Of a stretch of DNA of 64,000 nt, positions 30,362 through 64,000 are shown piece by piece. The DNA is from Eledone cirrhosa (taxonomy: Eukaryota): NCBI GenBank assembly GCA_964016885.1, contig OZ024741.1, positions 95,542,001-95,606,000 on the forward strand, given 5' to 3'. The notes under the pieces are model-generated. The model ran no database searches. It saw only the letters and a list, made by a program, of their open reading frames with translations, and was not told the origin of the DNA. The position numbers and the translations under genes are program-made. Position 1 is the first letter of the stretch, and each line of letters starts with the position of its first letter.

Positions 30362-30654
30362 ACTCCCAAAATCGGTTCCGCCAGGTTCAAAATGTTCAAG
30401 ACAACCCGTGTGTCAAGACGGCGTCCCTACGGTTCCATCAGCAGTTAAGTGCCCGTTCCATATTATCATCGAAGCTATCTGAATGTTTATTACAATTTAT
30501 CTGAGTGGTGAGGTTACCCCTGCGAGAGAAATGCTCTACTTCATAGCACACAATTTGTAAAACGACCCCACTAAATTTCCCCAAATTTATGAAATTCTTC
30601 TTCTCACCATCTTCTTCTTATTATTTAATGTCGGTAGTAGAAACAATTATTAAG

Positions 30655-30832
30655 TGTTGGTAGAGGGTCGGAGGCCATGCTTTGACGCATAGAGTTACAG
30701 CCCTTGCCATTCTGAGCTCAAATCCCGCCGAGGTTAATTTTGCTTTTCATCCTTACGGTGTCGATAAAATAAAGTACCAGTAATACACTGAGTATTTGCT
30801 GGCCTTGTGCCAAAAATAGAAACAATTATTAA
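30655..30832 (+). mobile_element. Meta-like SINE
   Basis: Matches the consensus. Followed by (AT)n and (GT)n at 30857-31018. Confidence 0.88.
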
Positions 30833-34804: not shown

Positions 34805-35190
34805 TAATAATGGTTTCTGATTTAGACACAAGGCCAGCAATTATCCCAGTGCATTACTGGTACTTTATTTTATTGACCTTGTAAGGATGAAAGGCAAAGT
34901 TAACCTCAGCAGGATTTGAACTCAGAATGTAAAGGGAAATAACTATATAGTGCAAAGCATATTGTCCAACACTCTACCAATACTACCAACCTACCCGCCT
35001 TATAATAATTGTTTCTACTTTTGGCACAAGGCCAGCAATTACCCAGTACATTACTGGTACTTTATTTTATCGACCCCATAAGGATGAAAGGCAAAGTTAA
35101 CCTCGGCGGGATTTGAACTCAGACCATAACGGGCCGTAACTCTTTGCTGCAAAGCATGGTGTCCGACCCTCTACCGATACTGACAATCCA
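34805..35190 (-). mobile_element. Two tandem Meta-like SINEs
   Basis: Copies at about 34805-35000 and 35003-35190. Confidence 0.88.
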
Positions 35191-37539: not shown

Positions 37540-38075
37540 TCGGTAAGTTGTTTTTAGGATCGGTATAGTGTCGTACAAAATTTCGTTTTAAGTTCAAATC
37601 CTCGCCCAAAATTGTTGGCGTTGCGCCTAAATCAGAAACCATTATTTTTTAGTGGATTGGCAGTATCGGTAGAGAGTCGGACACCATGCTTTGAACCATA
37701 GAGTTACGTCCCTTTATGATCTGAGTTCAAATCCCGCCGAGGTTAACTTTGCCTTTCATCCTTACGGGGTCGATAAAATAAAGTACCAGTAATACACTGG
37801 ATAATTGCTGGCCTTGTGCCAAAAGTAGAAACAATTATTTTTTATTGATTTAAGGGCGATGGGTTGGCAGTATCGATAGACGTCGGACAAAACGCGTTAC
37901 AGTATTTATTTACAACTTTCTACGTTCTGAGTTCAAATCTTACCGAGGTCAAACGTTGCCTCTCATCCTTCCAAAGTCGGCAAAGTAAAAGACCAGTAAA
38001 TAACTAAAGTTGATATAATCAACTTTCCTCTTCCCGAAATTACTGGCCTTGTGCCTAAATTAGGAATCATTATTT
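37540..38075 (+). mobile_element. Tandem Meta-like SINEs (one degenerate, two complete)
   Basis: Complete copies at about 37650-37840 and 37852-38075. A degenerate copy lies at about 37540-37648. Confidence 0.8.
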
Positions 38076-43036: not shown

Positions 43037-43228
43037 AGGGCGGTGAATTGGCAGTATCGGTAGAGGGTTGGACGCCATGCTTTCTAGCATAGTTACGTCC
43101 CTTTACAGTCTGAGTTCAAATCCCGCCGAGGTTAACTTTGCCTTTCATCCTTACGGAGTCGATAAAATAAAGTACCAGTAATGTACTGAGTTGTTGCTGG
43201 CCTTGTGCCTAAAGTAGAAACAATTATT
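43037..43228 (+). mobile_element. Meta-like SINE, full length
   Basis: Near-consensus copy. Confidence 0.9.
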
Positions 43229-44212: not shown

Positions 44213-44321
44213 CTTCTTCTTCTTCTTCTTCTTCTTCTTCTTCTTCTTCTTCTTCCAACATTTACACACTCTCGTGTGTTTTGTTTCTCGCCTTTTTTCT
44301 TTTCTTTCTTTTTAATGACGT
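44110..44321. repeat. Unclassified repeat end abutting (TATG)n, copy 1
   Basis: (CTT)n..CATTTACACACTCTCGTGTGTTTTGTTTCTCGCCTTTT..ATGACGT is shared with ~49010-49322. Confidence 0.7.
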
Positions 44322-44372
44322 GTGTATGTATGTATGTATGTATGTATGTATGTATGTATGTATGTATGTATG

Positions 44373-44402
<30 letters not shown>

Positions 44403-44403
<1 letters not shown>

Positions 44404-45006
44404 GGTCACCAGTTGGTGCTACTGGTAACATGTATCCCAGTACAACCTGTCTCATGGTCGGGTCGTTGGCGACTAAACTGGCAACCCCACCAAGGTTTCT
44501 TGGTGAGGAGGGTGACTTTGGACGTCCTGCAGGACTAAAACAAAACCTGTCAAAGGGCAAAGGAACTCTTAAGAGTCAATGGCCATCCAAAATCACCGGG
44601 AGAGATGACCCCTTAGCCTTTGTCAAGGCAGAATTCTAGGAGAAGGAAAACTCTGATATAACACCTGCAACTCTGATGGTATCCAATGATGTTGGCTTGT
44701 TCCTCTTTTTGGTAAATATCATCTTGGTTAAGAGAGTGGGACTGGCTTTGTGCAGTGCCTTTGCTCACTATAAAAGCTTCACGGCACAGGCATTGCTTTA
44801 TATCTGGAGATCTCTCTGCACTTGTCGTCACATGGTACCAAAGGCAATGCACTATGTGTCAATAATTGTCACAAGTGTAGTGTTTGTACCAGAGTTTTCA
44901 AGTCGCTGGCTGGACTAAAGAGTCACACTCGTTCAGCGCATCGGTAGGGGTTCTCCTACATGGATATAAAGTAGTGGCCGTACTCGAAAACGAGTTGGCA
45001 GTCACC
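44403..45006 (+). mobile_element. Non-autonomous bipartite derivative of the zinc-finger RTE family
   Basis: 44634-44796 aligns with the RTE 5'UTR at 50169-50351. 44870-44947 encodes HKCSVCTRVFKSLAGLKSHTRSAHR*, matching the last RTE finger. The tail GGCCGTACTCGAAAACGAG..GGCAGTCACC matches 54225-54256. Flanked by (TATG)n on both sides. Confidence 0.85.
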
Positions 45007-45087
45007 ATGTATGTATGTATGTATGTATGTATGTATGTATGTATGTATGTATGTATGTATGTATGTATGTATGCATGTATGTATGTA

Positions 45088-45226
45088 AGAAACTCCTTTC
45101 CAGAAATAACTTCTGGAAAAAAGAGGACATGTGTGACGTCTGAACGAATATCCTCCACCTCCAACTATCTTACCCTCCGCCTCTGTGCCCCGGTCGACAG
45201 GATGGAGAATACATTGCCCCGTAGGA
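45088..45226 (-). mobile_element. CRE-like 3' end with a (TACA)n tail
   Basis: Near-identical to 62359-62498, which continues into CRE endonuclease-coding sequence. Confidence 0.75.
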
Positions 45227-45228
45227 CG

Positions 45229-46255
45229 TTCACTTATTCATGAGAGGGTCGTGGGGACAGAGTCCCTAAACACTCCTTCCAGCGGATCCTGTCAGAAGTA
45301 ACCATTTTCAAATGACTCGGCTGGATCCTCTAACGAGAGCAGCCGAGCTCATGGATGTTATCCAACCGGCTTACTCTGGGTCTACTCTTGTGCCCTTCCG
45401 GTTGGTTTTACCCGTAAAATCTGTACAACGATTCTTTTCTGAAACATTCTAATCACATGGCCATAATACCCGAGCTGAGAAGTAGCGACTCTACCTGGAG
45501 TAACTCTCCGATGTCATAGCCACGCACTCTATTGAGTAACGTTACTCCAGAGACCCTTCAGAGGAACCCCATTTCAGCCGTTTGTATTCGCGATCGTATT
45601 CTTTCAGTCATTACCCAAGGTTCATAGCCATAGGCAAGGGCCGGCCGAATGCCGAATTGAAGATGGTAAATTTTGCTTTTACACCTACCTCCCTTCTTCT
45701 GATAACTGAATGTTGAGGCTGGCACATTACTGCACCAGCTCCTGCAATTCTTTCACTTAATTCAGCCTCTTACCTTCTATTGCTCGTGAACAGGACCCCA
45801 AGATACTTGAACTTCTCCACCTGCTTTAGTGTAACTCCATTCACATATAGCGTGTACTGCGCAGGCTACCTTAAAAAGATGAGCGTCTCAGATTTCGCAG
45901 CACTGATTTTCATTTCAGCCATGCAGCACTCGGCATCAAACCTATCAAGTGTATATCAGAGATCACCTTCTGTCAAGTTAGGTAACACCATGTCATCTGC
46001 AAATTCCTTGCCAGACGTAATTCCACTTCCAATCTAGTTACGCATGCCAATCCTGTTCATGTAAATAATGAACAAGAGAGGTGACAGTACGTACCCTTGG
46101 TGGACTCCAACTTCCACATTGAATTGTTTCGATTTAGAACCATTTATCCGAACATAAATACTCGGACATTCGTATAGACACACTAGGCAACAAGAAGTTG
46201 ACCATCGATCCCATACTCATGCAGAGCCTTCTACAGTCCAGTGGTACGCCTTCAT
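45229..46255 (-). mobile_element. RTE-clade (Expander/Rex3-like) LINE fragment, decayed RT plus 3' end
   Basis: Minus-strand remnants VGVHQGYVLSPLLFIIYM, FADDMVL, VEKFKYLGV and SRIQTAEMGFL. Homologous to 11289-11757. Confidence 0.85.
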
Positions 46256-46479
46256 ATTTATCTATCTAACCTAATTCTCTTTATAGTACTATTTCTCTCC
46301 TCCACTCAGCCAAAATCCAGCTTCCTTTTTTCACATTTCTTTAGTTCGACAAGAAAATGGAAACCATGAGTTAAAAAAACAAAACCACATGCCTTGGCCT
46401 TTTATAATATTGATTCAAATATTTTTAAAACAAATATTAATTATAGAAAAACAAACAACAGCGTCATTAGGAAGACATT

Positions 46480-47052
46480 AACAAACAACAAAGCTCCAAT
46501 AACAGTAATAACGAAAACAATCGAACTGCAACGACAACAACAACAGGAACAACAACAGCAGTAGCAATAAGAATAAAAACGATAGTAACAGCAACAGCAG
46601 CAGCAACAGGAGCAACAGCAACAGCAGCAGGTGCAATAACAATAATAATAACACCAGCAACATCAACAACAACAACAGCAGTAGCAGCAACACCACCAAC
46701 AACTTTAAGCAACAACAGGTGCAACAGGAACAATAATAGCAGCAGCAGCAACACCACCGCCACCACCACCACCACCACCACCACCACCACCACCATCACC
46801 ACCACCATCACCACCACCAACACCACTACCACCACCACCACCACCAACACCACCACCACCACCAACAACAACACCATCACCACCATCACCACCACCAACA
46901 CCACTACCACCACCACCACCACCAACACCACCACCACCACCACCACCACCGCCACCAACACCACCACCACCACCACCACCGCCACCAACACCACCACCAC
47001 CACCAACAACAAAAACTTTAGCAGCAACAACAGGTGCAACAGCAATAATAAT

Positions 47053-47090
<38 letters not shown>

Positions 47091-47160
47091 TAACAACAAC
47101 AGTAGCAGTAGCAGCAGCAACAACAACAACAACAGCAGTAGCAGCAACACCAACAACCAA
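46480..47160. repeat. Compound (CAA/CAG/CAC)n trinucleotide repeat
   Basis: Direct inspection. Confidence 0.9.
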
Positions 47161-47587
47161 AAAACGAGGAACTTTAACATCATCAAACGACATGCTAGAA
47201 ATAACATCTAAATCTCCTCCATATTTCACCCACATCATTAAAAAAAGGAAGGACAGTAAAGGTGATAAAGATTAAAGAGGGACACCACTAGAATGTCTGT
47301 GAAAATAAGTCTACTCGATCAGGGCCGACCTGGGGCTAAACAAGAACAGCATAACCAAAGGAACCTCTACGTGGTCACCCGAGCTGCTAGAAACAGCAGC
47401 CACATTTCCATCAAATCGTACCCTCTCGTTTTAGAAAAAGACGCGTTGGATAATAGCGTCTTGAGTCCCCTGTCCATCGGATAAAGACGGGATGTTCACG
47501 GTTGAAAAGTCTTTAATTATATGTCTGACCTGAGGCTAAACGACAACAGTAAGAACATCATCTATAACGTTATCATTGTAAGATAAT

Positions 47588-47808
47588 AGGGCGGTGGATT
47601 GGCAGAATCGGTAGAGCATCGAACACTATGCTTTGCGGCATAGAGTTATGGCCATTTACGTTCTGAGTTCAAATTCCACCAAGGTTAGCTTTGCCTTTCA
47701 TCCTTACGGGGTCGATAAAATAAAGTACCAGTCATGCATTGGGTCGATTTAATCGAGTTTCCCCTCTCCCCAAATTGCTGGCCTTGTGTCTATAGTAGAA
47801 ATCATTAT
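47588..47808 (+). mobile_element. Meta-like SINE, long subfamily
   Basis: Full consensus plus the GGGTCGATTTAATCGAG..CCCCAAATT insert. Confidence 0.9.
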
Positions 47809-47895
47809 AAGACAGTGGATTGGCAAACATATATGCACGCATACATGCTTTCACATACACACAAATACATACATGCTTATTTATGTATCTATCTA

Positions 47896-48718
47896 GGCGT
47901 AGAGGAGGACGAACTGGCCAGTCTGTTCGGTAGGACCTTCCGCCCGGGACCGATGGACAACTTCTAAAAGTCCCTGGCCTGGCAGTTCTACCGAGGAGCT
48001 CTACCAGTTCGAGACAAACTCTACAGACACGGGCGCCCGGGCAGGGACCCTTAGTCTGAGATCTGTCCGAGATGCGTGCGCGACGAGGAAACCGTCGCGC
48101 ACGCATTTGTACACTGCCCGGGCGTTACCAACTTGTGGGGTTATGTAGAACGACTTTTGTCGCGGGTGGGACCAATCCAGTTGACCACCGAGTCCATTGT
48201 CATGATCAAACCGCCACCCTCCTTCAAAAAAAAAAAAAATAGGAGGGGCGGTTTTCCGATGTGTTATGGCTATGGTGAAAGAGGTTATATGGTGGACGAG
48301 GTTAAAAGGGCTGAGGTCAGACACCTTTCTCTCCGGCCAACAACTGATTCGTTTTTTCAAATATCATTTTGGAAGAAGAATCAGGATGGAGAGAGAGGTG
48401 CTGTACCCCAGCAAATTTTATGAAAGGTGGGTGAATGTGGCAAAGATGGCCCGCATGGTTGGGCCTTCTCTCTATAAGCCTGTAGGTTGAGGAAAAAGAG
48501 GAAGAGAGGAAGTGGGTACTCACACTTGGTGCTCCTGGAGATGAGGGTTGTACATTTTTTCGGGGTGTGTACAACCCCTGTGTAACGCATCCCCCCTATT
48601 GGGGATTTCAATTGTTATTTGTTATTTTATTAATAGTTTTATTTTCATATACCTGTATGTAAACTCTCCATTTGTATTTGTCACCTTCTTTTGTGCCCTT
48701 GTGGCTAATAAAGAAATT
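47896..48718 (+). mobile_element. 5'-truncated Tx1/L1-clade LINE 3' end
   Basis: LAWQFYRGALPVRDKL..CPRCVRDEETVAHAFVHCPG (zf-RVT-type CCHC). AATAAA at the end. Flanked by the direct repeat TATCTATCTA (47886-47895 and 48719-48728). Confidence 0.85.
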
Positions 48719-48759
48719 TATCTATCTACTTATCTATGTATATTTATATCGATACGTAC

Positions 48760-48879
<120 letters not shown>

Positions 48880-49009
48880 TATAGAAACAGGATATCGGCT
48901 GTTATGTAATTTCAATGAATGTTTTCACCGTTTATCAAAAGAAAACGAAACAGTTTTGTATGAAAAGATTTCCGCTGAAGTCAGTTAATCGTTTTCTAAT
49001 CAATAAATT

Positions 49010-49322
49010 AACGTATGTCTCTCACTGAACTGACCATACATCGTTTCTTTCTTTCCTATTGACATCTTTAAAGTTGTCTTTTACATGTCAACATCGCCTT
49101 CTGTTCAATAGTTATACATAGTTTCATAGTTCACTGTTGCTAGTGTCACTCATATAAACATAACGCGCCATTAGACTCTTCTTCTTCTTCTTCTCATCCT
49201 ACTCCTCCTCATCCTCGTCATCCTTCTTCTTCTTCTTCTTCTTCTTCTTTCCCATAACCATTTACACACTCTCGTGTGTTTCGTTTCTCGCCTTTTTTTC
49301 TTTTCTTTCTTTTTCATGACGT
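49010..49322. repeat. Unclassified repeat end abutting (TATG)n, copy 2
   Basis: Homologous to 44110-44321. Confidence 0.7.
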
Positions 49323-49442
49323 AAGTATGTATGTATGTATGTATGTATGTATGTATGTATGTATGTATTACAACAACAACAACAACAGCGGCATCAAAAC
49401 ATAAAAAAAAGGAAGGGAAAAGAAAAAAGAAAAGGGAAGGGG

Positions 49443-49495
<53 letters not shown>

Positions 49496-50005
49496 AGAAA
49501 AAAAAAAAAGAAAGGAAAAAAAAAAAAAAAAAAAAAAAAAACTCAAAATAACAAAACACACACACACACAACAGAACAACAACATCAACTGCCACCACCA
49601 CCACCACCGCCACCGCCGTCGCCATCACCATCACCAGCGACCTGGCCTTAAGAACAACTTTAATAATAATTTTTCTGCTTTTGGCACGGATCCAGCGACT
49701 GGCCAGCGCATCACTGGTACTCTCTTTTGTTGACTCCGTGGAGAGCCATAACTCTATGCTGTAAAGCAATTATAGTAATACTGGACTGTAATACGATCGG
49801 CTTCAACTATACAAACTCTTGAAAGTCAACAGTTGACATAATCTGGTAATCTTGTATCAGTAATGACGGTAATATATATATATATATGTGTGTGTGTAAG
49901 TGAGTAGAGTAGCGTGTGTGTGTGTTTGTTGTGTGTGTGAGTGTTGCTGTGTGCACGCATATGTATGCGTGTGTGTGTATGTCGTACGTATAAGTGTCAA
50001 TAAGT

Positions 50006-50077
<72 letters not shown>

Positions 50078-50079
<2 letters not shown>

Positions 50080-50380
50080 GCGGGGACATAGAAATAATCG
50101 GGCTGGATGCCCGATCGCGCAGTTAAACCACTGGGAGTGAAGAACCCCTAGCCCATGTCAGGGTATTCTTCTAGGAGAAGGCATCTCAGGAAACTGGGTT
50201 AACTCCGATATAAAACCTGCGGCTCAGTAGTTACCGATGATGTTGATCTTTTCTTCTTTTCGGGTTATAGCTACTGTCGCTCAGAGAGTGGGATTGGTTC
50301 AGTGCACAGTCTTTCCTCACTTTAAAAATATTCGTCACGCACAGGCATTGCACGAGTGCATTAATAATTATTAATAGTGT

Positions 50381-50415
<35 letters not shown>

Positions 50416-50420
50416 TATTA

Positions 50421-50461
<41 letters not shown>

Positions 50462-53400
50462 CCCAATTCAATGATGTTCCAGAACAATGTAAACGAGATA
50501 ATTGCCAATTTGGGTTCTGGAACAAAAAAGATCATTGGCAATAAGGGCAGGGGCCCCAAGTTATCACAACCTGGGCCCGCCCGTCATCGTGCCATTGTAA
50601 TAGAGCCAAACAGGGCATTTAGTCTTGGCTGCTGGAACGTACGGACGCTGCTTGACAGGGATTCTTTGGAGCGTCCTGAACGAAGGACCGCTCTTGTTGC
50701 GAAGGAGCTTCGACGTTACGATCTTGACATCGTGGCTTTGTCTGAGACGAGGTTAGCTGGAGATGGTCATCTTACGGAATTTTGTGGAGAATATACATTC
50801 TTCTGGAAAGGAAGAGATGAAGGAACCAGAAGAGAGGCTGGGGTAGGATTTGCTGTTAAGACTGTACTGGTGAATAAATTGGAAGAATTCCCAGTGGGGA
50901 TTAGTGAGCGTCTTATGTCCATGAGAGTTCCGCTGGACAAGGGAAGATATGCTACCCTGGTGAGTGTGTATGCTCCAACTATGAATTCTGTCGATGAAGA
51001 AAAACTGTCCTTTTACCATGCCTTGAAAGGTGTTTTAAGAAATATCCCTCAGGCAGACAAAGTCATCGTGCTTGGTGACTTTAATGCTAGAGTGGGTAGG
51101 GATTTTAACACATGGAATGTAATCGGAAGGCATGGGGTGGGAAAGTGTAACAGCAATGGTATGCTCTTGCTGCAGATGTGTGAGGAGCTGGATCTGTGTG
51201 TTACCAACACCATGTTCCAACAAAAGAACAAATTCAAGACCACATGGATGCATCCTGCATCTAAGGAATGGCATCTTTTGGACTACGTCCTAGTCAGGAT
51301 GCGTGACAGACAGGATGTGCGGTGTGTTCGTGTTCTTCGTGGAGCTGAGTGCTGGACGGACCACCGCCTGGTACGCGCAAAAGTGAATCTAATCACCAAA
51401 CGTAAAATCCGGGCTCCTGGTGTTGCCCTGCCCAAAAGATTGAATGCTGCTCGTCTTGAGGATAAAAATGTGAAGAGGACATTGGAAGAAGAGATGCAGG
51501 CTGCAGATCTTGGTGAGGATTGGCCGACCCTTAAAAAGTCGGTTTATGATGTAGGCAGACGTGTTCTGGGATTGGTGCAGAGAAAACATCAGGACTGGTT
51601 TAATGAGAAAGATGTGCATATAGATGACTTGTTGGCTGATAAGAGGCGCGCTCTGTCACGCTACTTGACGGCAAGACCACAGGAGAGGAATACGTTGCAT
51701 GAGGAGCTCAGGGATGTAAAATCACGTGTTAGGCGGAGTCTTTCTCAGATGAAGGATCAGTGGTGGAGTGAGAAGGCTGGTGAGATACAAACTGCGTCTG
51801 ATTGCAATAACACAAAGCTGTTGTACAGTCTCTTGCGTGAGGTTTATGGACCGTCTTCTTCTCTGGTGACACCGATTCGCAGCAGGGATGGCAAAGAACT
51901 TCTTCGTGACTCGCAGGGAATTCTACGAAGGTGGCGGGAGCACTTTGATGATCTTTTGAATCAGCCGTCTGTCGTCAGTGAGGATTTCCTCAATCTCATT
52001 CCGGAAAGTCCTGTGAAAGTAGCTCTCGCAGAGCCTCCGACACTTGTGGAGGTTGCAGTGGCTATTTCGAAGCTGAACAGTGGAAGATCTCCAGGTATGG
52101 ATGGCATACATGCTGAGCTCCTACAATATGGTGGTGAGAGACTCCTGCAACATCTTCACTCTCTGTTTGGAAGGATATGGGCTAATGAATCCGTGCCTGA
52201 GGACTGGAGAGATGCAGTAATGGTGGTCTTGTACAAGGGAAAGGGTAACAGGAATGATTGTGGGAACTACAGAGGTATATCATTGCTTTCTGTCGTGGGG
52301 AAAGTTTTATGTAGGGTGCTTCTGGACCGTCTGCTGACACACATTGCAGATTGTGTCCTTCCTGAAAGTCAATCTGGTTTTCGTGTTGGACGCGGCACTA
52401 CTGATATGATCTTCTCAGCTAGACAGCTCCAGGAGAAGTGCATTGAACAGGGCTTGAATCTGTATCAGGTTTTTGTCGATCTGACAAAGGCTTTCGATAC
52501 TGTCAACAGAGATGCATTATGGAAGGTTCTCCAGAAACTTGGTTGCCCTGATAAGTTCCTTGCTTTAGTTAGGTCTTTCCATGACGACATGAAGGCTTGG
52601 GTTAATGTCGGAGGTAACATGTCGGAGCCTATCTCAGTAAAAAATGGAGTGAAACAGGGGGATATTCCAGCACCGACCCTGTTTGCCATATACTTTGCAA
52701 TGGTTTTCTGTGTTGCATTCAGGAATTGCGAGCATGGTGTTTACATCCGATATCGAACCTCAGGCAGCATATTTAACATCAGGCGCTTTGCTGCGAAGAC
52801 AAAAGTATTTACATCAGTCATAAGAGACCTCTTGTATGCAGATGATTGCGATCTTGTAGCGCACACAGAGAGTGATATGCAGCACATTTTGAATGTATTT
52901 TCTGACGCTTGCACTGCCCTGGGTTTGACTGTCAGTCTCAAGAAAACCGTCGTCATGTACCAACCTGCACCTGGTGGGCAGTACACTGAACCAAACATCT
53001 ATGTGTATGGCAAACGACTTGGAGTGGTTGATCAGTTTGTCTACCTGGGAAGCACTGTCAATCGATACGGCAACCTTGACGGTGAAATCTCACTTAGGAT
53101 TAGGAAAGCAAGTGATGCTTTCGGAAAGCTAGAAAGGCGACTCTGGGGTCGGCGAGACATATGCAGGAGGACAAAGGTAAGGGTGTACAGGGCATGTGTA
53201 CTCTCTTGTCTTCTTTATGCCTGCGAGACCTGGGTCACATATCGACGCCACCTTAAGCAATTGGAGCGTTTCCATCAGATGTGTCTCAGACGGATACATG
53301 GCGTTCGCTGGAGGGACCACATCAGTGATGTCGAGATTTTGGAAAGCTCTATGTGTGACAGTATAGAAGCTCTTGTGCTTAAGCAGCGACTCCGTTGGAG

Positions 53401-54024
53401 TGGTCACCTTGCCAGGATGAAGGATTCTAGAATACCAAAACAACTCTTCTATGGAGAGTTGGTTAAAGGAAAACGACCGCCACATAAACCAAAAAAGAGG
53501 TATAAGGATTCCTTGAAGGCCTCTCTGAAAGACGCTAACATCTCTGCTGATGCATGGGAAAATATTGCTGCTGATCGTAATAAATGGAGAAAGACTGTAT
53601 ATGAGGGAAAAGTTGCCTTTGAGGCATCTCGAATCGCACACGAGAAAGTAAAGCGGGACGTGAGGAAGGGTATTGCTGTTGCACTTCCAGACGGCGAGGG
53701 TCCTCCTATGTTTCTGACATGCAGCGTCTGTGCGAGACTCTGCCTAAGCAAAGCTGGACTCGAAAGTCATCTTCGCAGTCATAAAGTAAGACCAGTGGTT
53801 GACTACCAGGCTGCTGTTGGAGATGCTACTCATCATGCTTGCCAAACATGTGGTAGAGAATGTAAATCAGCAGGAGGACTCAAGCGACATGCAAAAGTAC
53901 ACGAACTCCAACCACAGCCGACTATTCCCAGTAAATGTTTTGGTTGCCGACTCTGTGCGAGACATTTTGGATCATTGGCTGGGCTAAAAAGCCACATTCG
54001 ATCGCAGCACTGTTAGTTGCTATC

Positions 54025-54062
<38 letters not shown>

Positions 54063-54141
54063 GCTTATGTGCGTGCGTGTGTGTGTATATATATATGAAT
54101 ATGTATATTATTATTGTTGTTGTCGTTATTATTATTATTGC

Positions 54142-54217
<76 letters not shown>

Positions 54218-54256
54218 TGTGCAATGGCCATACTCGATAACGAGGGGGCAGCCATC
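50078..54256 (+). mobile_element. RTE-clade LINE with an intact ORF and a (TATG)n tail
   Basis: 5'UTR homologous to the 44.4-kb mini-element, a single long ORF, and a 3' stem-loop CTCGATAACGAG followed by (ATGT)n. The true 5' boundary is uncertain because of the poly-T upstream. Confidence 0.92.
50471..54016 (+). CDS. RTE polyprotein: APE endonuclease, reverse transcriptase and three C2H2 zinc fingers (1181 aa)
   Basis: APE motifs WNVRTL, VALSETR, VYAPT, GDFNARVG, LDYVLV, TDHRLV. RT motifs YRGISLLS, QSGFR, FVDLTKAFDTV, GVKQGD, LYADD, YLGS. Fingers CSVC..HLRSH, CQTC..HAKVH, CRLC..HIRSQH. Confidence 0.95.
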   Translation: MMFQNNVNEIIANLGSGTKKIIGNKGRGPKLSQPGPARHRAIVIEPNRAFSLGCWNVRTLLDRDSLERPERRTALVAKELRRYDLDIVALSETRLAGDGHLTEFCGEYTFFWKGRDEGTRREAGVGFAVKTVLVNKLEEFPVGISERLMSMRVPLDKGRYATLVSVYAPTMNSVDEEKLSFYHALKGVLRNIPQADKVIVLGDFNARVGRDFNTWNVIGRHGVGKCNSNGMLLLQMCEELDLCVTNTMFQQKNKFKTTWMHPASKEWHLLDYVLVRMRDRQDVRCVRVLRGAECWTDHRLVRAKVNLITKRKIRAPGVALPKRLNAARLEDKNVKRTLEEEMQAADLGEDWPTLKKSVYDVGRRVLGLVQRKHQDWFNEKDVHIDDLLADKRRALSRYLTARPQERNTLHEELRDVKSRVRRSLSQMKDQWWSEKAGEIQTASDCNNTKLLYSLLREVYGPSSSLVTPIRSRDGKELLRDSQGILRRWREHFDDLLNQPSVVSEDFLNLIPESPVKVALAEPPTLVEVAVAISKLNSGRSPGMDGIHAELLQYGGERLLQHLHSLFGRIWANESVPEDWRDAVMVVLYKGKGNRNDCGNYRGISLLSVVGKVLCRVLLDRLLTHIADCVLPESQSGFRVGRGTTDMIFSARQLQEKCIEQGLNLYQVFVDLTKAFDTVNRDALWKVLQKLGCPDKFLALVRSFHDDMKAWVNVGGNMSEPISVKNGVKQGDIPAPTLFAIYFAMVFCVAFRNCEHGVYIRYRTSGSIFNIRRFAAKTKVFTSVIRDLLYADDCDLVAHTESDMQHILNVFSDACTALGLTVSLKKTVVMYQPAPGGQYTEPNIYVYGKRLGVVDQFVYLGSTVNRYGNLDGEISLRIRKASDAFGKLERRLWGRRDICRRTKVRVYRACVLSCLLYACETWVTYRRHLKQLERFHQMCLRRIHGVRWRDHISDVEILESSMCDSIEALVLKQRLRWSGHLARMKDSRIPKQLFYGELVKGKRPPHKPKKRYKDSLKASLKDANISADAWENIAADRNKWRKTVYEGKVAFEASRIAHEKVKRDVRKGIAVALPDGEGPPMFLTCSVCARLCLSKAGLESHLRSHKVRPVVDYQAAVGDATHHACQTCGRECKSAGGLKRHAKVHELQPQPTIPSKCFGCRLCARHFGSLAGLKSHIRSQHC

Positions 54257-54325
54257 ATGTATGTATGTATGTATGTATGTATGTATGTATGTGTGTATGT
54301 ATGTGTGTGTGTGTGTGTGTGTGTA

Positions 54326-54414
<89 letters not shown>

Positions 54415-54514
54415 ATGTGTGTATGTATGTGTGTGTGTGTATGTATGTCTGTCTGTCTGTCTGTGTGTGTGCATGATTATGTATGTATGTATGTATGTAT
54501 GTGTGTGTGTGTGT

Positions 54515-54580
<66 letters not shown>

Positions 54581-54613
54581 ATGTATGTATGTGTATATAT
54601 GTATGTATGTATG
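54257..54613. repeat. (TATG)n/(TG)n compound microsatellite
   Basis: Direct inspection. Similar tracts lie at 58667-58910, 59141-59895, 60277-60334 and 61861-62358. Confidence 0.95.
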
Positions 54614-57600
54614 TTATCTCTTTCTCTTAATTTCGAGTATATTTTTTTTGACCGGCCACCTTCCTGGTGGCAAGGTTGTAAAAGAAAAGAAATTGTCATC
54701 CCTTGAATCGCAAGAATGTTTTGCAAATTTTGAAGGTGCCAGCTATCGCAGCCATTTGTAGTCTATGAATTAGGGAGCTGCGCTTTTTGTCCGCAAATCC
54801 AAGTTCAGTCATACTTTGGTCCAAGCGGGTTGGTATATAACCCGTAGCTCCAATAATGATGGGTATGAAGCTAAAGGTGTATCTTGGATACTGGATTTGT
54901 AAACTCCTCATCAATGGTCCGTAAATGTCCTCCTTCTCCTGTATTTTTCTGACAACGTTTACATCAAGTGGGCAGCTGATCTCCACAACAGAACACGTTT
55001 TCAATGTGTGGTCCTAAACAACAATATCAGGCCGGTTGTGCTTTTATTTGGTGGCAGTTTTTATTTTCAGGTTCCACCAGTATTCCTTAGTGCCATCTGT
55101 CTCAATATATTCCTCCTCGTTTGTTGTTAATTTTGTTTTCCGAAGTGCGTTCCAGATGGTTCTAGCTATCCCATCGTGTCTCATGGGGAGGTAGTAGCGA
55201 GATGACATTCTTTCGAAGCTGGCAACAATGTGGCTTACATCCTCGATCTTTGTTTTACATAGCCTACATTTATTGTCAGCTGCAGGCCCTCCTCTTTTGT
55301 GCAGCAGATATTTGGTAGGGAGTTCTTGTTCCTGTATTGCATAGAGATATCCCTCAAGGTGTGATGTCATAAACTTGTCGGAACTCCATGCCAGGCTTTT
55401 GAGTGGTTTATCCCCTCTATGGTCTGTGTTTTACGCCTCAAGTATCCATGCACAACTTTTTCTGTAAATTGGTCAATTTTTTTTATCTTGTTTGAACATT
55501 GAATAGGATCTTCCAATTTCTCTGGGTGAGAGATTTATATCAGGCTTTATTCCATATCTCTCCTCCAGATCAGTCGCTATTCTAATGATATTTTTTTTTT
55601 CATGCTCATAAACCTGGGCAAGATGGTTGTCAACCTTTTTCCTCTGTTGAAGGTGTTGCTTTAGTGTTACTATCCGGGTCTCATATGTTGTTAATATTGA
55701 TTTTAGACCCGGCCACCTTCCTTGCGTGAGAAGTATAGCCTATCCACATCACCATTGATGTTAAAGTTCCCAGTAACACTGAGAAGTTTTCGAGTTCTAA
55801 CATCCATCTCACTTAGTTCTTGCAATGACCAGTTCAGCAGGCCAAATGTTGGCGTTAGAATTGGCACAGCATAAGTATTGTGGGCAATGTATTTGTTGTA
55901 TGCTGACAGTTCTGATGACCATATTTTCTTTACTCTTCTGAGGTATTCAGTTCTGGTTCTCTCCTTATTTATGGGTCCATCATATCTGACATTCTCATCC
56001 TGTCCAAGATATCTGTAGTTGTCACCTGACTGCAGAGGTTGTATTGTCAGGCCGTTCATCTCTAGATTTCTAGAGGAGGGCACAGCTCTTCCACGTTTTA
56101 CTGCCAAATATGCACACTTGGACTCACCAAATCTCATTTTGATGTCGGTTGAAAATTGTGTAATGAGGTCCAATTGTTTCTTGATGTCATTGATATTCGG
56201 CCCATACAACTTCAGGTCATCAACAAAGAAAAGATGGGAGATACTTCTGGGCCCACTTCTTTGTCCACCTTGTTTCCTGAGTAGGTAAGATAGTGGATTC
56301 AGTGAGAGAACGAAGAGTAGCACTGAGAAGCTATAACCCTGAAAGATTCCCTTCTGGTAATGTATCTTATCAGTTTTAACTTGCTCCTTCTCACCTCTAA
56401 GGATCAAATTGGTGTACCAGTTCTTGGTCAGGCGTTCAACAGCAGCTACCAATGGTTGTGGGACTTTAGCTAACTGTAAAGCCTTAATAATCCACCCATG
56501 AGGTACACTATCAAATGCTTTTTGATAGTACAGCCACACCACAGTCATGTTTCTGCGATTCTTTGTTGTTTTTTTTTCTGAATCATTTTGTTAGTTAGTA
56601 GGTGATCTATGCACCCCCCCACACCTCCCTCTTTCCACCAGCTTGCTCAGGTGTTATGATGTTGTTGGTAGCACAGTGATCCTGTAAGAACAGGTTAAGG
56701 CACCCAGTATATCATTTATACATGATGTTTTGGCAGGCTATTGGGCGGTAATTTTTAGCAAGGGTGGTTTGGCTATTTTTGGGAATGAGGAGAGTAGTGG
56801 CAGTTGATAACCAACTGGGCAGTTCTTGTGTGCCTTTAATGGTTTCTGTAAACAACGGTATGAGATCTTGCCGATAGAAAGTGAAATTCTTCAACCAGTA
56901 TCCTGTAATGAGGTCTGGGCCTGGCGATTTCCTATTCGACATTTTCTGTAGAGCTGTTTCCAGTATTGACCCATCTATGTCATATTGTTTTATCTGGTCA
57001 TGTTGGCAGTAGTCCTGTTCCAGTTCTTTTAGCCAATTAGTTTGTCTGTTGAATCCGTCATCCGTTTCCCATACAGATCTCCAGTAGCTCTCAACCTGTT
57101 CTTTTGAAGGGGTGTCGTTTACATGGATTGAGCTTTTGCCACCGAAGCTGCGATAAACTGATTTAGGATCTCTGGCAAACAATCTATTTAGCACGTGTCG
57201 TTTATGTGCTGTTGACTTATATTTTAGTCTTTCTGTTGTAGCTGTGTGTTGTTGTTTCAACTGGTGTAATTTGGAGTTCAAAGTTTTAAATTTTGTATCT
57301 CCAAATCGTCTCTCTAACTTTTTCTTTAGGTCTTCCTGGTGTCGTGTGAAATTGCTCTCTATGTTGCATTTCATAACGACTGCGATGTGTGAGATACTTC
57401 GTCTCAGGGACAAGATTTTGGTTTTTAAATTTCGCATCCACGCTGGTTCAGGCTTTCTGTTTGTATCTTGATTGCGTGGTTTTAGATGTGTGTTATATGA
57501 TAGCAATGTGACAGCTGAAACATATAACAAAACATTAAGCGTTTCAAATGTCGTTTCTACACCTTTAGATCGTATAGCTTTCAGATAATTGCCAGCTATT

Positions 57601-58664
57601 TCGTTCACCGCTTCCAATTCCAATTTAGTGGGTTCTTTACTGACTCTAGTGTTGTATGGTCTGTCACTCACATTAAGGCTGTGTATCTCTTGAAACATAT
57701 CGTTCCATATCACTTGTAGGGTGTCCACAAGTTTTTGGTGCTCTGTTTGTTCAGTAGAGTCATGAATTTCAGCCTCGTTGTTGATGTGGTGACAATTACT
57801 ACTAGAGTTAGCTGACCTTTCTCGCTGTTCTTCAGTGGAAGTGGGATGGATTTCAGCAAAATTGTTGGTGAGCTGTTCACTGTTAGATTTAGCTGGCCAT
57901 TCTCTTTGCCTGTCAGTGGAGGTGGGGTGGTTGTCTACAAGGGCTGTATTTGTAGTATCACTCAATTCCGTTAGATGTATCAATTTACATCTAATGATAC
58001 GTTTTGCCTGTTCATTTAAATGCTTTGGAGAAAAGTCTAATTCTGGGTGTTTGGAGTTCCATAAAGTTTTTAGCCTTTGCATAAAACCGAACTTTTGGGG
58101 TTCAGATTGTTTGTATGCTTCATATAATACTTTGTTAAGCTCGTAGCTCCACTGTATACAACGGTTGTAGTTGCGATATGGTCGAAGGAGACTTGTACTT
58201 TTTGCCATGATGAGTTCGTCTATTCACTAATATTTCGTATTTATTTTTCAAAATAGTCGATGATCTTCTTTAAAAGTTTCGACAAAGTTCTGTCAGAATC
58301 AAATTTAAAGTTATTCACAGCTTGGGTAATATTTCTTTTCAGTTAGTTTTTAATTCTACAACTGTGTTTTAAACGTTGTTCTTGAATCGTTTGAATCGAG
58401 AACAAAAAGAACCGTTACTTAGTATATTTCTTTATGAATGTAATATAATATAACAACACTGTATTTATATGTTAAAGTTTATGTATAATTCATATAAATA
58501 GGTGTTTTACAACACACTTACAGTTCAAACACTTATGTAGAATTATTGTATGTAATCTTACCGCGTAATGTAGCGCAACTTTTTCCAATATATGGTATGT
58601 TGCCTTCATGTAAGCCGTAATTACACACGTCCGATTATCGGACACTGACCACAACGGTCGCCAT

Positions 58665-58666
<2 letters not shown>
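54614..58666 (-). mobile_element. Near full-length R4/Dong-like RLE non-LTR retrotransposon, frameshifted
   Basis: The broken ORF carries KSPGPDLITGYWLK, NYRPIAC, KAFDSVPH, GIFQG, HLFFVDDLKLY, YRYLG, RLYFSRKEGGR, CRLC..HIV and VVEISCP. The 5' leader is about 460 bp. Both ends abut (TATG)n. Confidence 0.9.
54696..58208 (-). pseudogene. Disrupted RT plus CCHC plus restriction-like endonuclease ORF of the Dong-like element
   Basis: ORF pieces 56712-58208, 55703-56548, 55044-55370 and 54696-55004 are collinear parts of one protein. Copy 3 retains the intact motif KHNRPDIVVWD..VVEISCP. Confidence 0.88.
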
Positions 58667-58696
<30 letters not shown>

Positions 58697-58910
58697 TGTA
58701 TGTATGTATGTATGTATGTATGTGTGTGTGTATGTATGTATGTATGTATGTATGTATGTATGTATGTATGTATGTATGTATGTATGTATGTATGTATGTA
58801 TGTATGTGTCTGTCTGTCTGTCTGTGCGTGTGCGTGTGTATGTATGTATGTATGTATGTATGTATGTATGTATGTATGTATGTATGTATGTATGTATGTA
58901 TGTATGTATG

Positions 58911-59140
58911 TTATCTCTTTCTCTTAATTTCGAGTATATTTTTTTTGACCGGCCACCTTCCTGGTGGCAAGGTTGTAAAAGAAAAGAAATTGTCATCCCT
59001 TGAATCGCAAGAATGTTTTGCAAATTTTGAAGGTGCCAGCTATTGCAGCCATTTGTAGTCTATGAATTAGGGAGCTGCGCTTTTTGTCCGCAAATCCAAG
59101 TTCAGTCATACTTTGGTCCAAGCGGGTTGGTATATAACCC
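58911..59140 (-). mobile_element. Dong-like element copy 2 (230-bp 3' end)
   Basis: Almost identical to 54614-54843. (TATG)n on both sides. Confidence 0.92.
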
Positions 59141-59169
59141 ATGTATGTATGTATGTATGTATGTATGTA

Positions 59170-59206
<37 letters not shown>

Positions 59207-59223
59207 ATGTATGTATGTATGTA

Positions 59224-59276
<53 letters not shown>

Positions 59277-59577
59277 ATGTATGTATGTATGTATGTATGT
59301 ATGTATGTATGTGTGTGTATGTATGTATGTATGTATGTATGTGTGTGTGTGTGTGTATGTGTGTGTGTATGTATGTATGTATGTATGTATGTAAGTATGT
59401 GTATGTCTGTCTGTCTGTCTGTCTGTGTGTGCGTGTGTATGTATGTATGTATGTATGTATGTATGTATGTATGTGTGTATGTGTGTGTGTATGTATGTAT
59501 GTAAGTATGCCTGCATGTATGTATGTATGTATGTGTGTGTATGTAAGTATGTATGTATGTATGTATGTATGTATGCA

Positions 59578-59610
<33 letters not shown>

Positions 59611-59771
59611 ATGTATGTATGTATGTATGTATGTATGTATGTATGTGTGTATGTATATATGTATGTGTGTATGTATGTATGTATGCATGTATGTGTGTGT
59701 GTGTATGTATGTATGTATGTATGTATGTATGTATGTATGTATGTATGTGTGTATGTATGTATGTGTGTATG

Positions 59772-59805
<34 letters not shown>

Positions 59806-59895
59806 TGTGTGTATGTATGTATGTGTGTATGTATATATGTATGTATGTATGTATGTGTGTATGTATGTATGTATATATGTGTGTATGTATGTATG

Positions 59896-60276
59896 TTCTT
59901 CTGGTTTTATAATTTCACAAAGTTTTACCAATAGAGAGAGGGTCGGTTTCTAACATAGACACAAGACTCTCTCAATGGAATTTACACAACATCAACTAGG
60001 TAGATATGAATGCATGCATGCATGCATGTGTAGATATGGATGTTATTGTATGTGTGGATGTGTATCTTTTGAGTTGTATGTGTGATGTGTATATGCTTTG
60101 TATCTGTACATGTGTATATGCAGTTATTAGATGCAAAATTTTTGGAATGTTTTACATATTTTTACTGTTCCATTAATGGATTGTACTTGTAATTTCCTAA
60201 CTAGTTGTGTTCTTTCTGTTCCTGTGAAGCCTAGCTTCTCAAGATTTGTATTGAGGCAGTTACTAACATATCCCAG
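59896..60276 (-). mobile_element. 3' end of a second, diverged Dong-like subfamily
   Basis: LGYVSNCLNTNLEKLGF..RKLQVQSINGTVKICKTFQKF aligns with TGYIPTRLDQSMTELGF..HRLQMAAIAGTFKICKTFLRF. The 3'UTR differs. (TATG)n on both sides. Confidence 0.8.
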
Positions 60277-60334
60277 TGTATGTATGTATGTATGTATGTA
60301 TGTATGTATGTATGTATGTATGTATGTATGTATG

Positions 60335-61860
60335 TTTTCTCTTTCTCTTAATTTTGAGTATATTTTTTTGACCGGCCACCTTCCTGGTGGCAAGGTTGTA
60401 AAAGAAAAGAAATTGTCATCCCTTGAATCGCAAGAACGTCTTGCAAACTTTGAAGGTGCCAGCTATCGCAGCCATTTGTAGACTATGAATTAGGGAGCTG
60501 CGCTTTTTGTCCGCAAATCCAAGTTCAGTCATACTTTGGTCCAAGCGGGTTGGTATATAACCCGTAGCACCAATAATGATGGGTATGAAGCTAAAGGTGT
60601 ATCTTGGATACTGGATTTGTAAACTCCTCATCAATGGTCCGTAGATGTCCTCCTTCTCCTGTATTTTTCTGACAACGTTTACATCAAGTGGGCAGCTGAT
60701 CTCCACAACAGAACACGTTTTCAATGTGTGGTCCCAAACCACAATATCAGGCCGGTTGTGCTTTAATCTGGTGGCAGTTTCTACCTTCAGGTTCCACCAG
60801 TATTCCTTAGTGCCATCTGTCTCAATATATTCTTCCTCGTTTGTTGTTAATTTTGTTTTCCGAAGTGCGTTCCAGATGGTTCTAGCTATCCCATCGTGTC
60901 TCATGGGGAGGTAGTAGCGAGATGACATTCTTTCGCAGCTGGCAACAATGTGGCTTACATCCTCGATCTTTGTTTTACATAGCCTACATTTATTGTCAGC
61001 TGCTGGCCCTCCTCTTTTGTGCAGCAGATATTTGGTAGGGAGTTCTTGTTCCTGTATTGCATAGAGATATCCCTCAAGGTGTGATGTCATAAACTTGTCG
61101 GAACTCCATGCCAGGCTTTTTGAGTGGTTTATCCCCTCTATGGTCTGTGTTTTACGCCTCAAGTATCCATGCACAACTTTTTCTGTAAATTGGTCAATTT
61201 TTTTTATCTTGTTTGAACATTGAATAGGATCTTCCGATTTCTCTGGGTGAGAGATTTATATCGGGCTTTATTCCATATCTCTCCTCCAGATCAGTCGCTA
61301 TTCTAATGATATTTCTTTTTTCATGCTCATAAACCTGGGCAAGATGGTTGCCAACCTTTTTCCTCTGTTGAAGGTGTTGCTTCAGTGTCACTATCCGGGT
61401 CTCATTGGTTGTTAATATTGATTTTAGACCCCGGCCACCTTCCTTGCGTGAGAAGTATAGCCTATCCACATCACCATTGATGTTAAAGTTCCCAGTAACA
61501 CTGAGAAGTTTTCGAGTTCTAACATCCATCTCACTTAGTTCTTGCAATGACCAGTTCAGTAGGCCAAATGTTGGCGTTAGAATTGGCACAGCATAAGTAT
61601 TGTGGGCAATGTATTTGTTGTATGCTGACAGTTCTGATGACCATATTTTCTTTACTCTTCTGAGGTATTCAGTTCTGGTTTTCTCCTTATTTATGGGTCC
61701 ATCATATCTGACATTCTCATCCTGTCCAAGATATCTGTAGTTGTCACCTGACTGCAGAGGTTGTATTGTCAGGCCGTTCATCTCTAGATTTCTAGAGGAG
61801 GGCACAGCTCTTCCACGTTTTACTGCCAAATATGCACACTTGGACTCACCAAATTTCATT
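60335..61860 (-). mobile_element. Dong-like element copy 3 (1.5 kb, 5'-truncated)
   Basis: Highly similar to 54614-56139 with independent substitutions. Intact CCHC (CRLC..H..SC) and RPD..D..E motif. (TATG)n on both sides. Confidence 0.92.
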
Positions 61861-61921
61861 ATGTATGTATGTATGTATGTATGTATGTACGTTTGTATGT
61901 ATGTATGTATGTATGTATGTA

Positions 61922-61956
<35 letters not shown>

Positions 61957-61987
61957 ATGTATATATGTATGTATGTATGTATGTATG

Positions 61988-62058
<71 letters not shown>

Positions 62059-62101
62059 ATGTGTGTGTATGTATGTATGTGTGTGTGTGTGTGTGTGTAT
62101 G

Positions 62102-62198
<97 letters not shown>

Positions 62199-62203
62199 AT
62201 GTA

Positions 62204-62250
<47 letters not shown>

Positions 62251-62251
62251 A

Positions 62252-62286
<35 letters not shown>

Positions 62287-62358
62287 ATGTATGTATGTAT
62301 GTATGTATGTATGTATGTATGTATGTATGTATGTGTATGTATGTGTGTGTATGTATGT

Positions 62359-62722
62359 AAAAATTCCTTTCCAGAAATAACCTCTGGAAAAAAGAGGGAA
62401 TGTGTGACGTCAGAACGAATATCCTCCACCTCCAACTAACTTACCCTCCACCTCTGGGTCCTGATCGACAGGATGGAGAATACATTGCCCCGTAGGATAG
62501 TGAGGAACAGTCACTTCACCTGGCGGGGCTGGCACCTGCAGGCAGCTAACTCCGCTCCGATAGTAGTGAGTAGCGTTGTGGTCCTGTGGCCAAGAACGCC
62601 GGAAGTCTCCACAGATTCAGACTCTACCACAAACCTATCAGAGAACGGCCGATACTTGGACAGTTTGCCCTCATCGGCCTGGCACGCAGCAGAGCCTGGG
62701 CTGGCAGCCGAACGCACCAGGT
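62359..62722 (-). mobile_element. CRE-like 3' fragment with a (TACA)n tail
   Basis: SAACQADEGKLSKYRPFSDRFVVESESVETSGVLG..LLTTIGAELAACRC aligns with the C-terminus of the element at 32.9 kb. Confidence 0.85.
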
Positions 62723-63534: not shown

Positions 63535-63918
63535 ATTGGCAGTATCGGTAGAGGGTCGGACGCCATGCTTTGACGCATAGAGTTACGGCCCTTGCCATTC
63601 TGAGTTCAAATCCCGCCGAGGTTAACTTTGCCTTTCATCCTTACGGGGTCGATAAAATAAAGTACCAGTAATGTACTGGGTAATTGCTGGCCTTGTGCCA
63701 AATGTAGAAACAATTATTAGAAAAGGACGGTGGATTGGCTGTATCGGTAGAGAGTCGGACGCCATGCTTTACAGCATAGAGTTACGTCCTTTTACAGATT
63801 GAGTTCAAATTCCGCCGAGGTTAACTTTGCCTTTCATCCTTACGGGGTTGATAAAATATAGTACCAGTCATGTACTGGGTATTTGCTGACCTTGTGCCAA
63901 AAGTAGAAACAATTATTA
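63535..63918 (+). mobile_element. Two tandem Meta-like SINEs
   Basis: Near-consensus copies at about 63535-63718 and 63725-63918. Confidence 0.9.
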
Positions 63919-64000
63919 GGATAGCGATGTTTGAGTAAACGTTTGGGACTTTAGGCAACAAAACAATGCACAGTAACATTTAACTATCACAAAACTAACA

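Follow-up and report, generated by a model that had tools for sequence, protein, structure and literature searches.

A 64-kb window of the Eledone cirrhosa genome (contig OZ024741.1, positions 95,542,001 to 95,606,000 of the forward strand; the window means this whole stretch of 64,000 nucleotides and coordinates are counted from its first letter) carries a long interspersed nuclear element (LINE) of the RTE type that encodes three C-terminal C2H2 zinc fingers and lies among arrays of the repeat TATG, which its lineage appears to prefer as an insertion target. Its single open reading frame (ORF), at 50471..54016 on the plus strand, runs from an ATG without internal stops for 1181 amino acids. 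This is the sole long ORF of the window, the runner-up stop-to-stop frame being 503 amino acids, and upstream of it no ORF of at least 80 amino acids was found except repeat-derived frames, so that the architecture is single-ORF and lacks ORF1. The apurinic/apyrimidinic endonuclease (APE) domain (50633..51376, residues 55–302, plus strand) was delimited from Pfam PF03372/PF14529 and the catalytic motifs, with Exo_endo_phos matching at residues 55–276 (E 1.3e-11), and the core of the reverse transcriptase (RT; 52253..53056, residues 595–862, plus strand) from RVT_1 (PF00078, E 1.1e-30). The motifs, named according to L1/RTE usage, are in place on the APE side (WNVR55, LSETR90, SVYAP165, GDFNA202, DY271, TDH296) and on the RT side (VDLTKAFD669, KQGD728, YADD789, YLG858). 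Three fingers of the form C-x2-C-x12-H-x3/4-H (together 53720..54010, plus strand) lie at residues 1084–1104, 1124–1144 and 1159–1180 (53720-53782, 53840-53902 and 53945-54010) with linkers of 19 and 14 amino acids; they were recognized from motif pattern, alignment and predicted fold, the Pfam match (zf-C2H2_4, E 7e-5) being under the curated cut-off. The AlphaFold model, built with 59 sequences, has a mean predicted local distance difference test (pLDDT) score of 80.6 and predicts a hairpin-plus-helix at each finger (blocks of about 70–79, linkers 56–63). A fold search with this model gave human L1 ORF2p structures as top matches (E 6e-35), with R2 structures also present. The first-pass annotation of this DNA had called an RTE LINE with an intact three-finger ORF, which these results bear out; the SxAGL-like helix that it ascribed to all the fingers fits two of the three (SKAGL in the first and SLAGL in the third) and not the second, which reads SAGGL.

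A homologue search with the C-terminal 422 amino acids returned 205 matches, and the counts given here are for the 120 listed plus the query (121). Three fingers were present in 59 of these, two in 9, one in 50 and none in 3, which are not frequencies in nature because the C-terminal query region enriches for fingers; as 58 of the 120 listed homologues carry three, the triple-finger ORF is not unique. The earlier statement that typical RTEs lack multi-finger arrays was overstated to the extent that one C-terminal finger is common and three mark a large lineage. In a tree of the RT region only (a quick method with a midpoint root, made up of unnamed homologues, with named RTE references and other clades outside it) all 68 two- and three-finger proteins fell within one side of 76 rows, set off by a long branch with a Shimodaira–Hasegawa-like approximate likelihood ratio test (SH-aLRT) value of 100, and each of the 45 rows on the opposite side had at most one finger; the triple finger is therefore a lineage trait. 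Within the aligned proteins finger number is labile (1–3) inside the multi-finger lineage and a single finger is ordinary among RTEs. Placement in the RTE clade is based on architecture, on RTE motifs and on 45–50% identity to one-finger relatives, including lancelet, snail and frog records; the sole named close match is an Octopus bimaculoides fragment (69%), which together with the content of simple repeats suggests an octopod. Like RTEs of the RTE-1 and Bov-B type, the element has one APE-RT ORF, no ORF1 and a 3' hairpin followed by a microsatellite tail, it shares with the clade the possession of bipartite non-autonomous derivatives (PMC5786205), and one C-terminal C2H2 finger is common among its relatives. 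It differs from them in having three fingers, in a TATG tail that is held across members only 40–54% identical and in long arrays on both sides. Judged by sequence, then, it is an intact single-ORF RTE-clade LINE belonging to a multi-finger lineage, in the variant with three fingers, and this lineage is widespread, perhaps among marine animals. A search of representative sequences added nine three-finger and two five-finger RTE-like fragments, all without flanks; in the latter two (P0222 and P0233) the five C-terminal fingers are C2H2 of the one-finger (RARIGL) type, and finger number has here expanded independently. The viral contigs searched contained no relative, and the genome contigs searched contained distant RTs and one single-finger RTE without TATG and no closer relative; two bacterial matches to the 3'-end pattern in the latter were attributed to chance. 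Matches from an atlas search were eukaryotic clusters.

It had also been suggested that the element might belong to the C2H2-bearing RTE expressed in octopus brain, and this did not hold. RTE-2_OV of Octopus vulgaris and RTE8BF of O. bimaculoides (PMC9115989) resemble the window element in being RTE-clade elements with C2H2 and a microsatellite-filled 3' untranslated region (UTR) in what is probably likewise an octopod host. RTE-2_OV is, however, described as a protein of 1109 amino acids with one reported finger, as against 1181 and three here, and five primers, of the 12 LINE primers listed, mismatch at 3–7 of their 18–20 bases, so that the two are set apart by description and primers (PMC9115989). 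For RTE8BF the comparison with the 3206-nucleotide reference is indirect and assumes no insertions or deletions; based on the variant lists in parts 1–2 of 13 of supplement 1, the best register agreed at 34/44 sites against 35/44 for a control (PMC9115989). The expression and polymorphism data for these two octopus elements do not transfer to the family in the window.

The ends of the element lie in simple repeats. Upstream, a degenerate TA/TG/TATG tract (49886..49982, no strand assigned) is the likely 5' flank, and hence target, of this full-length copy, its boundary being placed by sequence and motif spacing. The nearest (TATG)2 lies 206 nucleotides upstream of a conserved GGAGAAGG motif in the window copy, 196 in a related metagenome locus (L020) and 238 in a non-autonomous derivative in the window (44403-45006, described below); from this spacing the 5' end is expected near 49983, the alternative being about 50078, after a T run. 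The probable 5' UTR (49983..50470, plus strand), defined by alignment with the derivative and by read depth, comprises T70 (50008-50077), a core (50125-50351), in which 157/205 aligned columns are identical to the derivative, and a TAT/T tract (50383-50461). At 50078-50341 read depth was 6- to 100-fold that at the start of the ORF in three runs, so that this part is common to abundant short elements (the bodies of SINEs, short interspersed nuclear elements, or derivatives). Rfam gave no family in the window or the 5' UTR at the gathering threshold, nor any of the self-cleaving ribozyme kind at E up to 10, and an HDV-like or twister-like ribozyme judged by eye in the 5' UTR was dropped, the fold having a z value of 0.04 against shuffles. 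As both junctions are in simple repeats no unique target-site duplication can be read. Downstream of the stop codon the 3' UTR (54017..54224, plus strand), identified by sequence and repeat scan, is packed with repeats of TG, TAT and T; in the copies of run X5 no more than about 12 nucleotides separate the stop codon from the hairpin region (loose end at 54015). The 3' terminal hairpin (54225..54262, plus strand), which ends in CATG, is common to 7/7 aligned ends. These share GGC..TC..GA..GCA..CATG, and the 5' stem shows two-sided changes in four of its eight pairs. It runs into a (TATG)n/(TG)n array (54257..54614, plus strand; Tandem Repeats Finder period 4, 92 copies) that is the tail and the likely target.

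The association with TATG was surveyed in 82 metagenome loci that were fetched, 32 of which have a finger and at least 45 nucleotides beyond it. The hairpin followed by (TATG)n formed the 3' end of all five three-finger loci and of none of the 27 other RTE loci with a readable 3' end (Fisher p 5e-6 over the 32 loci, a value that overstates independence because fingers and TATG ends share one evolutionary origin). (TATG)3 was present in five of the 82 loci, exactly the three-finger ones, and in 0/77 others; the 27 other loci with a readable 3' end have short CAAG, CAT, CAA, AT and similar tails, with one (CATA)4. In their C-terminal region the five loci and the window copy are 40–54% identical to each other. 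At the 5' side, L001 and L020 start in TATG arrays of about 13 and 28 units, which exceed the length of a target-site duplication, and the sequence of L003 stops short of the flank. Among the reads of the family, two of the eight upstream loose ends shown (from 19 of 1173 rows) are TATG-type; one comes from a 984-nucleotide contig in which the element part begins at 52769 and abuts (GTAT)n, and is therefore from a 5'-truncated family copy. The window itself holds a bipartite non-autonomous RTE derivative, recognized by alignment (44403..45006, plus strand, 604 nucleotides), that consists of 5' UTR, a remnant of finger 3 and the 3' hairpin and lies between two (TATG)20 arrays (44323-44402 and 45007-45087). 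Its host is one of two copies of a repeat with 95% and 92% identity between their halves: the copy at 44255-44322 / 45090-45226 holds the derivative, and the other, of which the left half with its TATG array is at 49259..49368 (no strand assigned) and the right half resumes at 62361-62497, holds the full RTE copy, both being interrupted at the internal array. The 187-nucleotide head of the derivative has no counterpart in the full copy; it is similar to the 5' regions of two other loci, L063 and L025. The host repeat, read on the minus strand (44255-44322 / 49259-49322; 45090-45226 / 62361-62497), carries a CATA array in its interior, and its end is of AAG type.

In sum the same repeat is found on both sides, as in a site-specific APE LINE, in L001, L020 and the derivative, and not in L007 or L002. 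Several observations weigh against insertion into TATG: the 5' flank could be read in only four metagenome loci, two of which are without TATG (L007, a copy truncated at the 5' side, has an A-rich flank and a short tail, and L002 has 1073 nucleotides upstream and no array), and the 5' flank of the window copy itself consists of a degenerate TG/TATG tract or of a T run and not of a clean array. A reading without any targeting would see in TATG no more than a conserved tail at the 3' end, from which microsatellites are seeded and expand; the 5' arrays would then stem from copies in tandem, from the way repeat nodes are assembled or from biased survival in a region rich in TATG. It is known of RTEs that they terminate in microsatellites and give rise to them (PMC2887409); repeats are frequent end points of contigs, and the 1396 bases of (TATG)3+ arrays in the window are nearly all concentrated within 44300-62400, all of which, together with L002 and L007, such a reading accommodates. 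It fits poorly, however, with the derivative, which has an array of 20 units on either side and lies in a host repeat that carries this array in its second copy as well, with the truncated copy that abuts (GTAT)n and with the lack of such arrays in the 77 other loci; moreover copies arranged head to tail would count as TATG insertions in their own right. We therefore regard absence of targeting as improbable, and a real insertion preference for (TATG)n/(CATA)n arrays as the probable explanation of these flanks. Given the two 5' flanks without TATG we read this as a preference and not as strict specificity, so that the targeting proposed in the first-pass annotation stands at the level of the lineage, from the flanks of relatives and the derivative, with L002 and L007 as counter-examples.

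Target-primed reverse transcription, recognition of a 3' hairpin, 5' truncation and trans-mobilized bipartite derivatives are established for the RTE clade. In the mechanism that we propose, the APE-RT protein would carry out target-primed reverse transcription at TATG/CATA arrays, the three conserved fingers likely helping to keep it on the TATG repeat and the UAUG tail of the RNA likely setting the register of priming. Across the 59 three-finger proteins the finger helices are kept finger by finger (positions −1/+3/+6 read S/G/(N,S), S/G/R and S/G/S in fingers 1 to 3, R occupying +6 of the second finger in 49 of the 59) and the linkers vary from 6 to 45 amino acids. The fingers are also what most visibly sets the lineage apart as an addition. 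Neither the TGEKP-type short linkers nor the base-reading residues of a canonical tandem C2H2 array were found in the window protein, where the helices are of S/A/G/S type. In R2 a C2H2 helix enters the minor groove and helps to choose the target (PMC10499050, PMC12222951). This offers a usable model for helices made of small residues, and by analogy with the N-terminal finger of R2 the fingers here would probably be loosely linked minor-groove or backbone binders rather than a canonical 9-bp major-groove array. We would give even chances to a contribution of the fingers to the TATG preference, by tethering combined with priming from the tail.

The competing explanation accepts the preference and derives it from a cleavage bias of the endonuclease together with annealing of the UAUG tail to nicked (CATA)n, the fingers being passengers that bind RNA or protein. 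The prevailing view of APE elements and RTEs is one of endonuclease-led targeting and tail–primer pairing (PMC6007223). Seven of the 36 lineage-diagnostic residues fall in the endonuclease, the finger linkers are long and variable, and finger number ranges from one to three within the lineage. The residues at −1, +2 and +3 of the helices are small (S, A/G and G) and by the usual code these are poor base readers. A direct role of the fingers is further weakened by the presence of G+3/L+4 in one-finger RTEs also and by the single origin of the lineage, because of which the correlation between fingers and TATG counts only once; the locus DNA, it should be noted, covers three-finger members and includes none of the one- or two-finger members of the lineage. 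What speaks against the endonuclease and tail as sufficient causes is that the endonuclease hairpin is nearly unchanged in the lineage, this region being close to that of one-finger RTEs without TATG, and that the finger helices are strongly conserved despite the low overall identity. In addition, microsatellite-tailed one-finger RTEs show short tails and unique flanks, and it is rare for Bov-B copies to have a tail-like target at their flanks, so that tail annealing alone seems insufficient (PMC13295347). On balance we consider the passenger explanation rather unlikely, and retain finger tethering with tail priming as the working model.

Comparison with elements of known target choice bears on the same question. 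In described RTEs insertion is dispersed, with no more than a weak T-stretch/TA signature (PMC6007223, PMC13295347, PMC13708176). The closest parallel to one repeat flanking the element on both sides is given by the R1- and Tx1-clade APE elements that target microsatellites; these are of a different clade, possess ORF1 and have no C-terminal C2H2 triple, and the single ORF of the window element does not match the two ORFs and R1/Tx1-clade RT that define membership there. The target specificity of R1/Tx1 elements is credited mostly to the endonuclease. Waldo, Kibi and Koshi target microsatellites. Mino, a further such element, inserts into AC repeats (PMC3124438). R2 elements, with one finger in R2Bm and three N-terminal fingers in the R2-A clade, resemble the present lineage in the use of C2H2 fingers for target recognition and in variation between one and three fingers (PMC10499050, PMC12222951), but they have a restriction-like endonuclease (RLE), N-terminal fingers with Myb and a target in 28S ribosomal DNA, so that the likeness is one of working only; among the best 60 of 91 sequence matches to the finger region there was no R2 chain.

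The age of the window copy was assessed from sequencing runs. At least 17 runs from 13 studies contain the stretch or part of it, six of them at half of its words or more, and none of those listed was an RNA run; runs X11–X18, with small shares of words, were left out of the copy comparison. In run X1 depth climbs about tenfold from the start to the end of the ORF, as with 5'-truncated copies, and 2421 of the 9574 placed contigs are at least 99% alike to the window copy. Of the 784 differences between window and family the best-supported 40 were considered, and the 25 at which at least 90% of the X1 depth differs from the window were used, 15 being dropped. In these near-fixed differences the window has G and the family A at 18 sites, against one site with C in the window and T in the family (binomial p 5e-5 given base counts). 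The 18 sites are spread over 3.2 kb on one strand, none has G as 5' neighbour (background 32%, p 0.001), and ten alter an amino acid, none of these being catalytic or near-invariant. In run X7, the closest, 12 of the 13 differences shown are of this G/A kind, and the window's letter is matched at five other variable sites. The run's own differences lean to A>G on the sense strand (14 vs 5 T>C), as would be expected if other copies bore marks of editing too. ADAR prefers certain neighbouring bases and disfavours others, and the pattern in the window copy is the one to be expected if adenosines in the sense RNA had been edited by ADAR to inosine, reverse-transcribed as G and fixed in the new insertion. 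In coleoids widespread editing of repeats is reported (PMC9068888). That the A-to-G changes are inosines copied as G is, from the pattern of sites, likely in our judgement.

Alternatively the excess might reflect an assembly or polishing artefact, an error bias of the RT or an unsampled subfamily. The skew was read from the assembled letters of the window and not from its own reads, it rests on the 40 tool-selected differences, and the whole family has a lean to purine transitions of 1.5- to 1.9-fold (in X19, G>A 167 vs C>T 89). Also unfavourable to editing are that six of the 18 G sites are in CpG, that the G at 51982 and 52297 occurs in some other copies as well and that, with eight of the 18 sites preceding a G, preference for a 3' G falls short of significance (p 0.09). 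CpG decay as the sole source is out, 12 of the 18 sites not being CpG. The ratio of 18:1 far exceeds the family-wide lean, however, and an artefact would explain neither the missing 5' G and the spread along one strand nor the fact that X7 carries the window's other alleles and not G at these sites, which leaves a source other than editing doubtful. Because there are few private changes other than A>G the insertion is likely to be young, and present activity is plausible, although the protein departs from near-invariant residues of its lineage at five or more positions (G107, N380, Q421, R425 and K539). Taken as a whole, the proposal of a TATG-preferring three-finger RTE, with finger hold and tail priming, of which the window holds a recent copy of an ADAR-edited transcript, seems to us about as probable as its negation.

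Among APE clades only R1 and Tx1 are recorded, in accounts from 2018 and 2026, as containing site-specific LINEs (PMC6007223, PMC13295347), and the RTEs taken up for RNA-only gene writing integrate at random (PMC13708176). We advance only tentatively the broader claim that the lineage represents a third APE clade with sequence-directed insertion, achieved by a C-terminal C2H2 triple and not by the endonuclease, and that octopod copies fix a record of germ-line ADAR activity. The literature searched yielded no account of an RTE with three fingers or with TATG as its target, although Repbase, Dfam and subscription journals lay outside the search and may describe the lineage, nor any of editing marks fixed in cephalopod LINE copies. 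If correct, a compact single-ORF RTE that has a repeat as its natural target and carries a separable binding module at its C-terminus would illustrate how targeting is acquired by APE elements, and tethered targeting would become directly testable. The fixed A-to-G marks would likewise directly attest ADAR editing of retrotransposon RNA in a cephalopod's germ line, as well as the ability of such RNA to transpose once edited; so far this role has been proposed on the basis of transcript data (PMC9068888). Should neither targeting nor editing hold, this is an ordinary intact RTE copy.

The remainder of the TATG-rich region is occupied by three RLE-type LINE copies on the minus strand (54615..61859), each between TATG arrays and identified by RT and zf-RVT matches, an RPD..E..K motif and a zinc knuckle. 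One is long and frame-broken (54615-58666) and two are 5'-truncated (58912-59140 and 60336-61859). The clade, by resemblance, is R4/Dong-like, and the RLE LINE seems to be a second, unrelated element that targets the same TATG repeat and is nested in the RTE tail. Because their 3' ends are 97.5–99.6% identical to each other these copies are young though frame-broken, and the description of the RTE as the only intact element among decayed ones therefore holds for ORFs and not for age. This nest, like the 3' hairpin, the derivative and the A-to-G skew, had gone unmentioned in the first-pass annotation. A 380-bp unique stretch between two TATG arrays (59897-60276) has no second match in the window. 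Elsewhere the window contains large minisatellites at 16968-25718 (a 40-bp unit repeated about 223 times, with a higher-order pattern of 195/235 bp) and 12340-15728 (about 68 copies of a 50-bp unit), and many copies, on both strands and often in tandem, of a SINE-like repeat of about 200 bp (2188-2781, 30647-30830, 34805-35190, 37656-37839, 43045-43228, 47598-47781 and 63535-63919).

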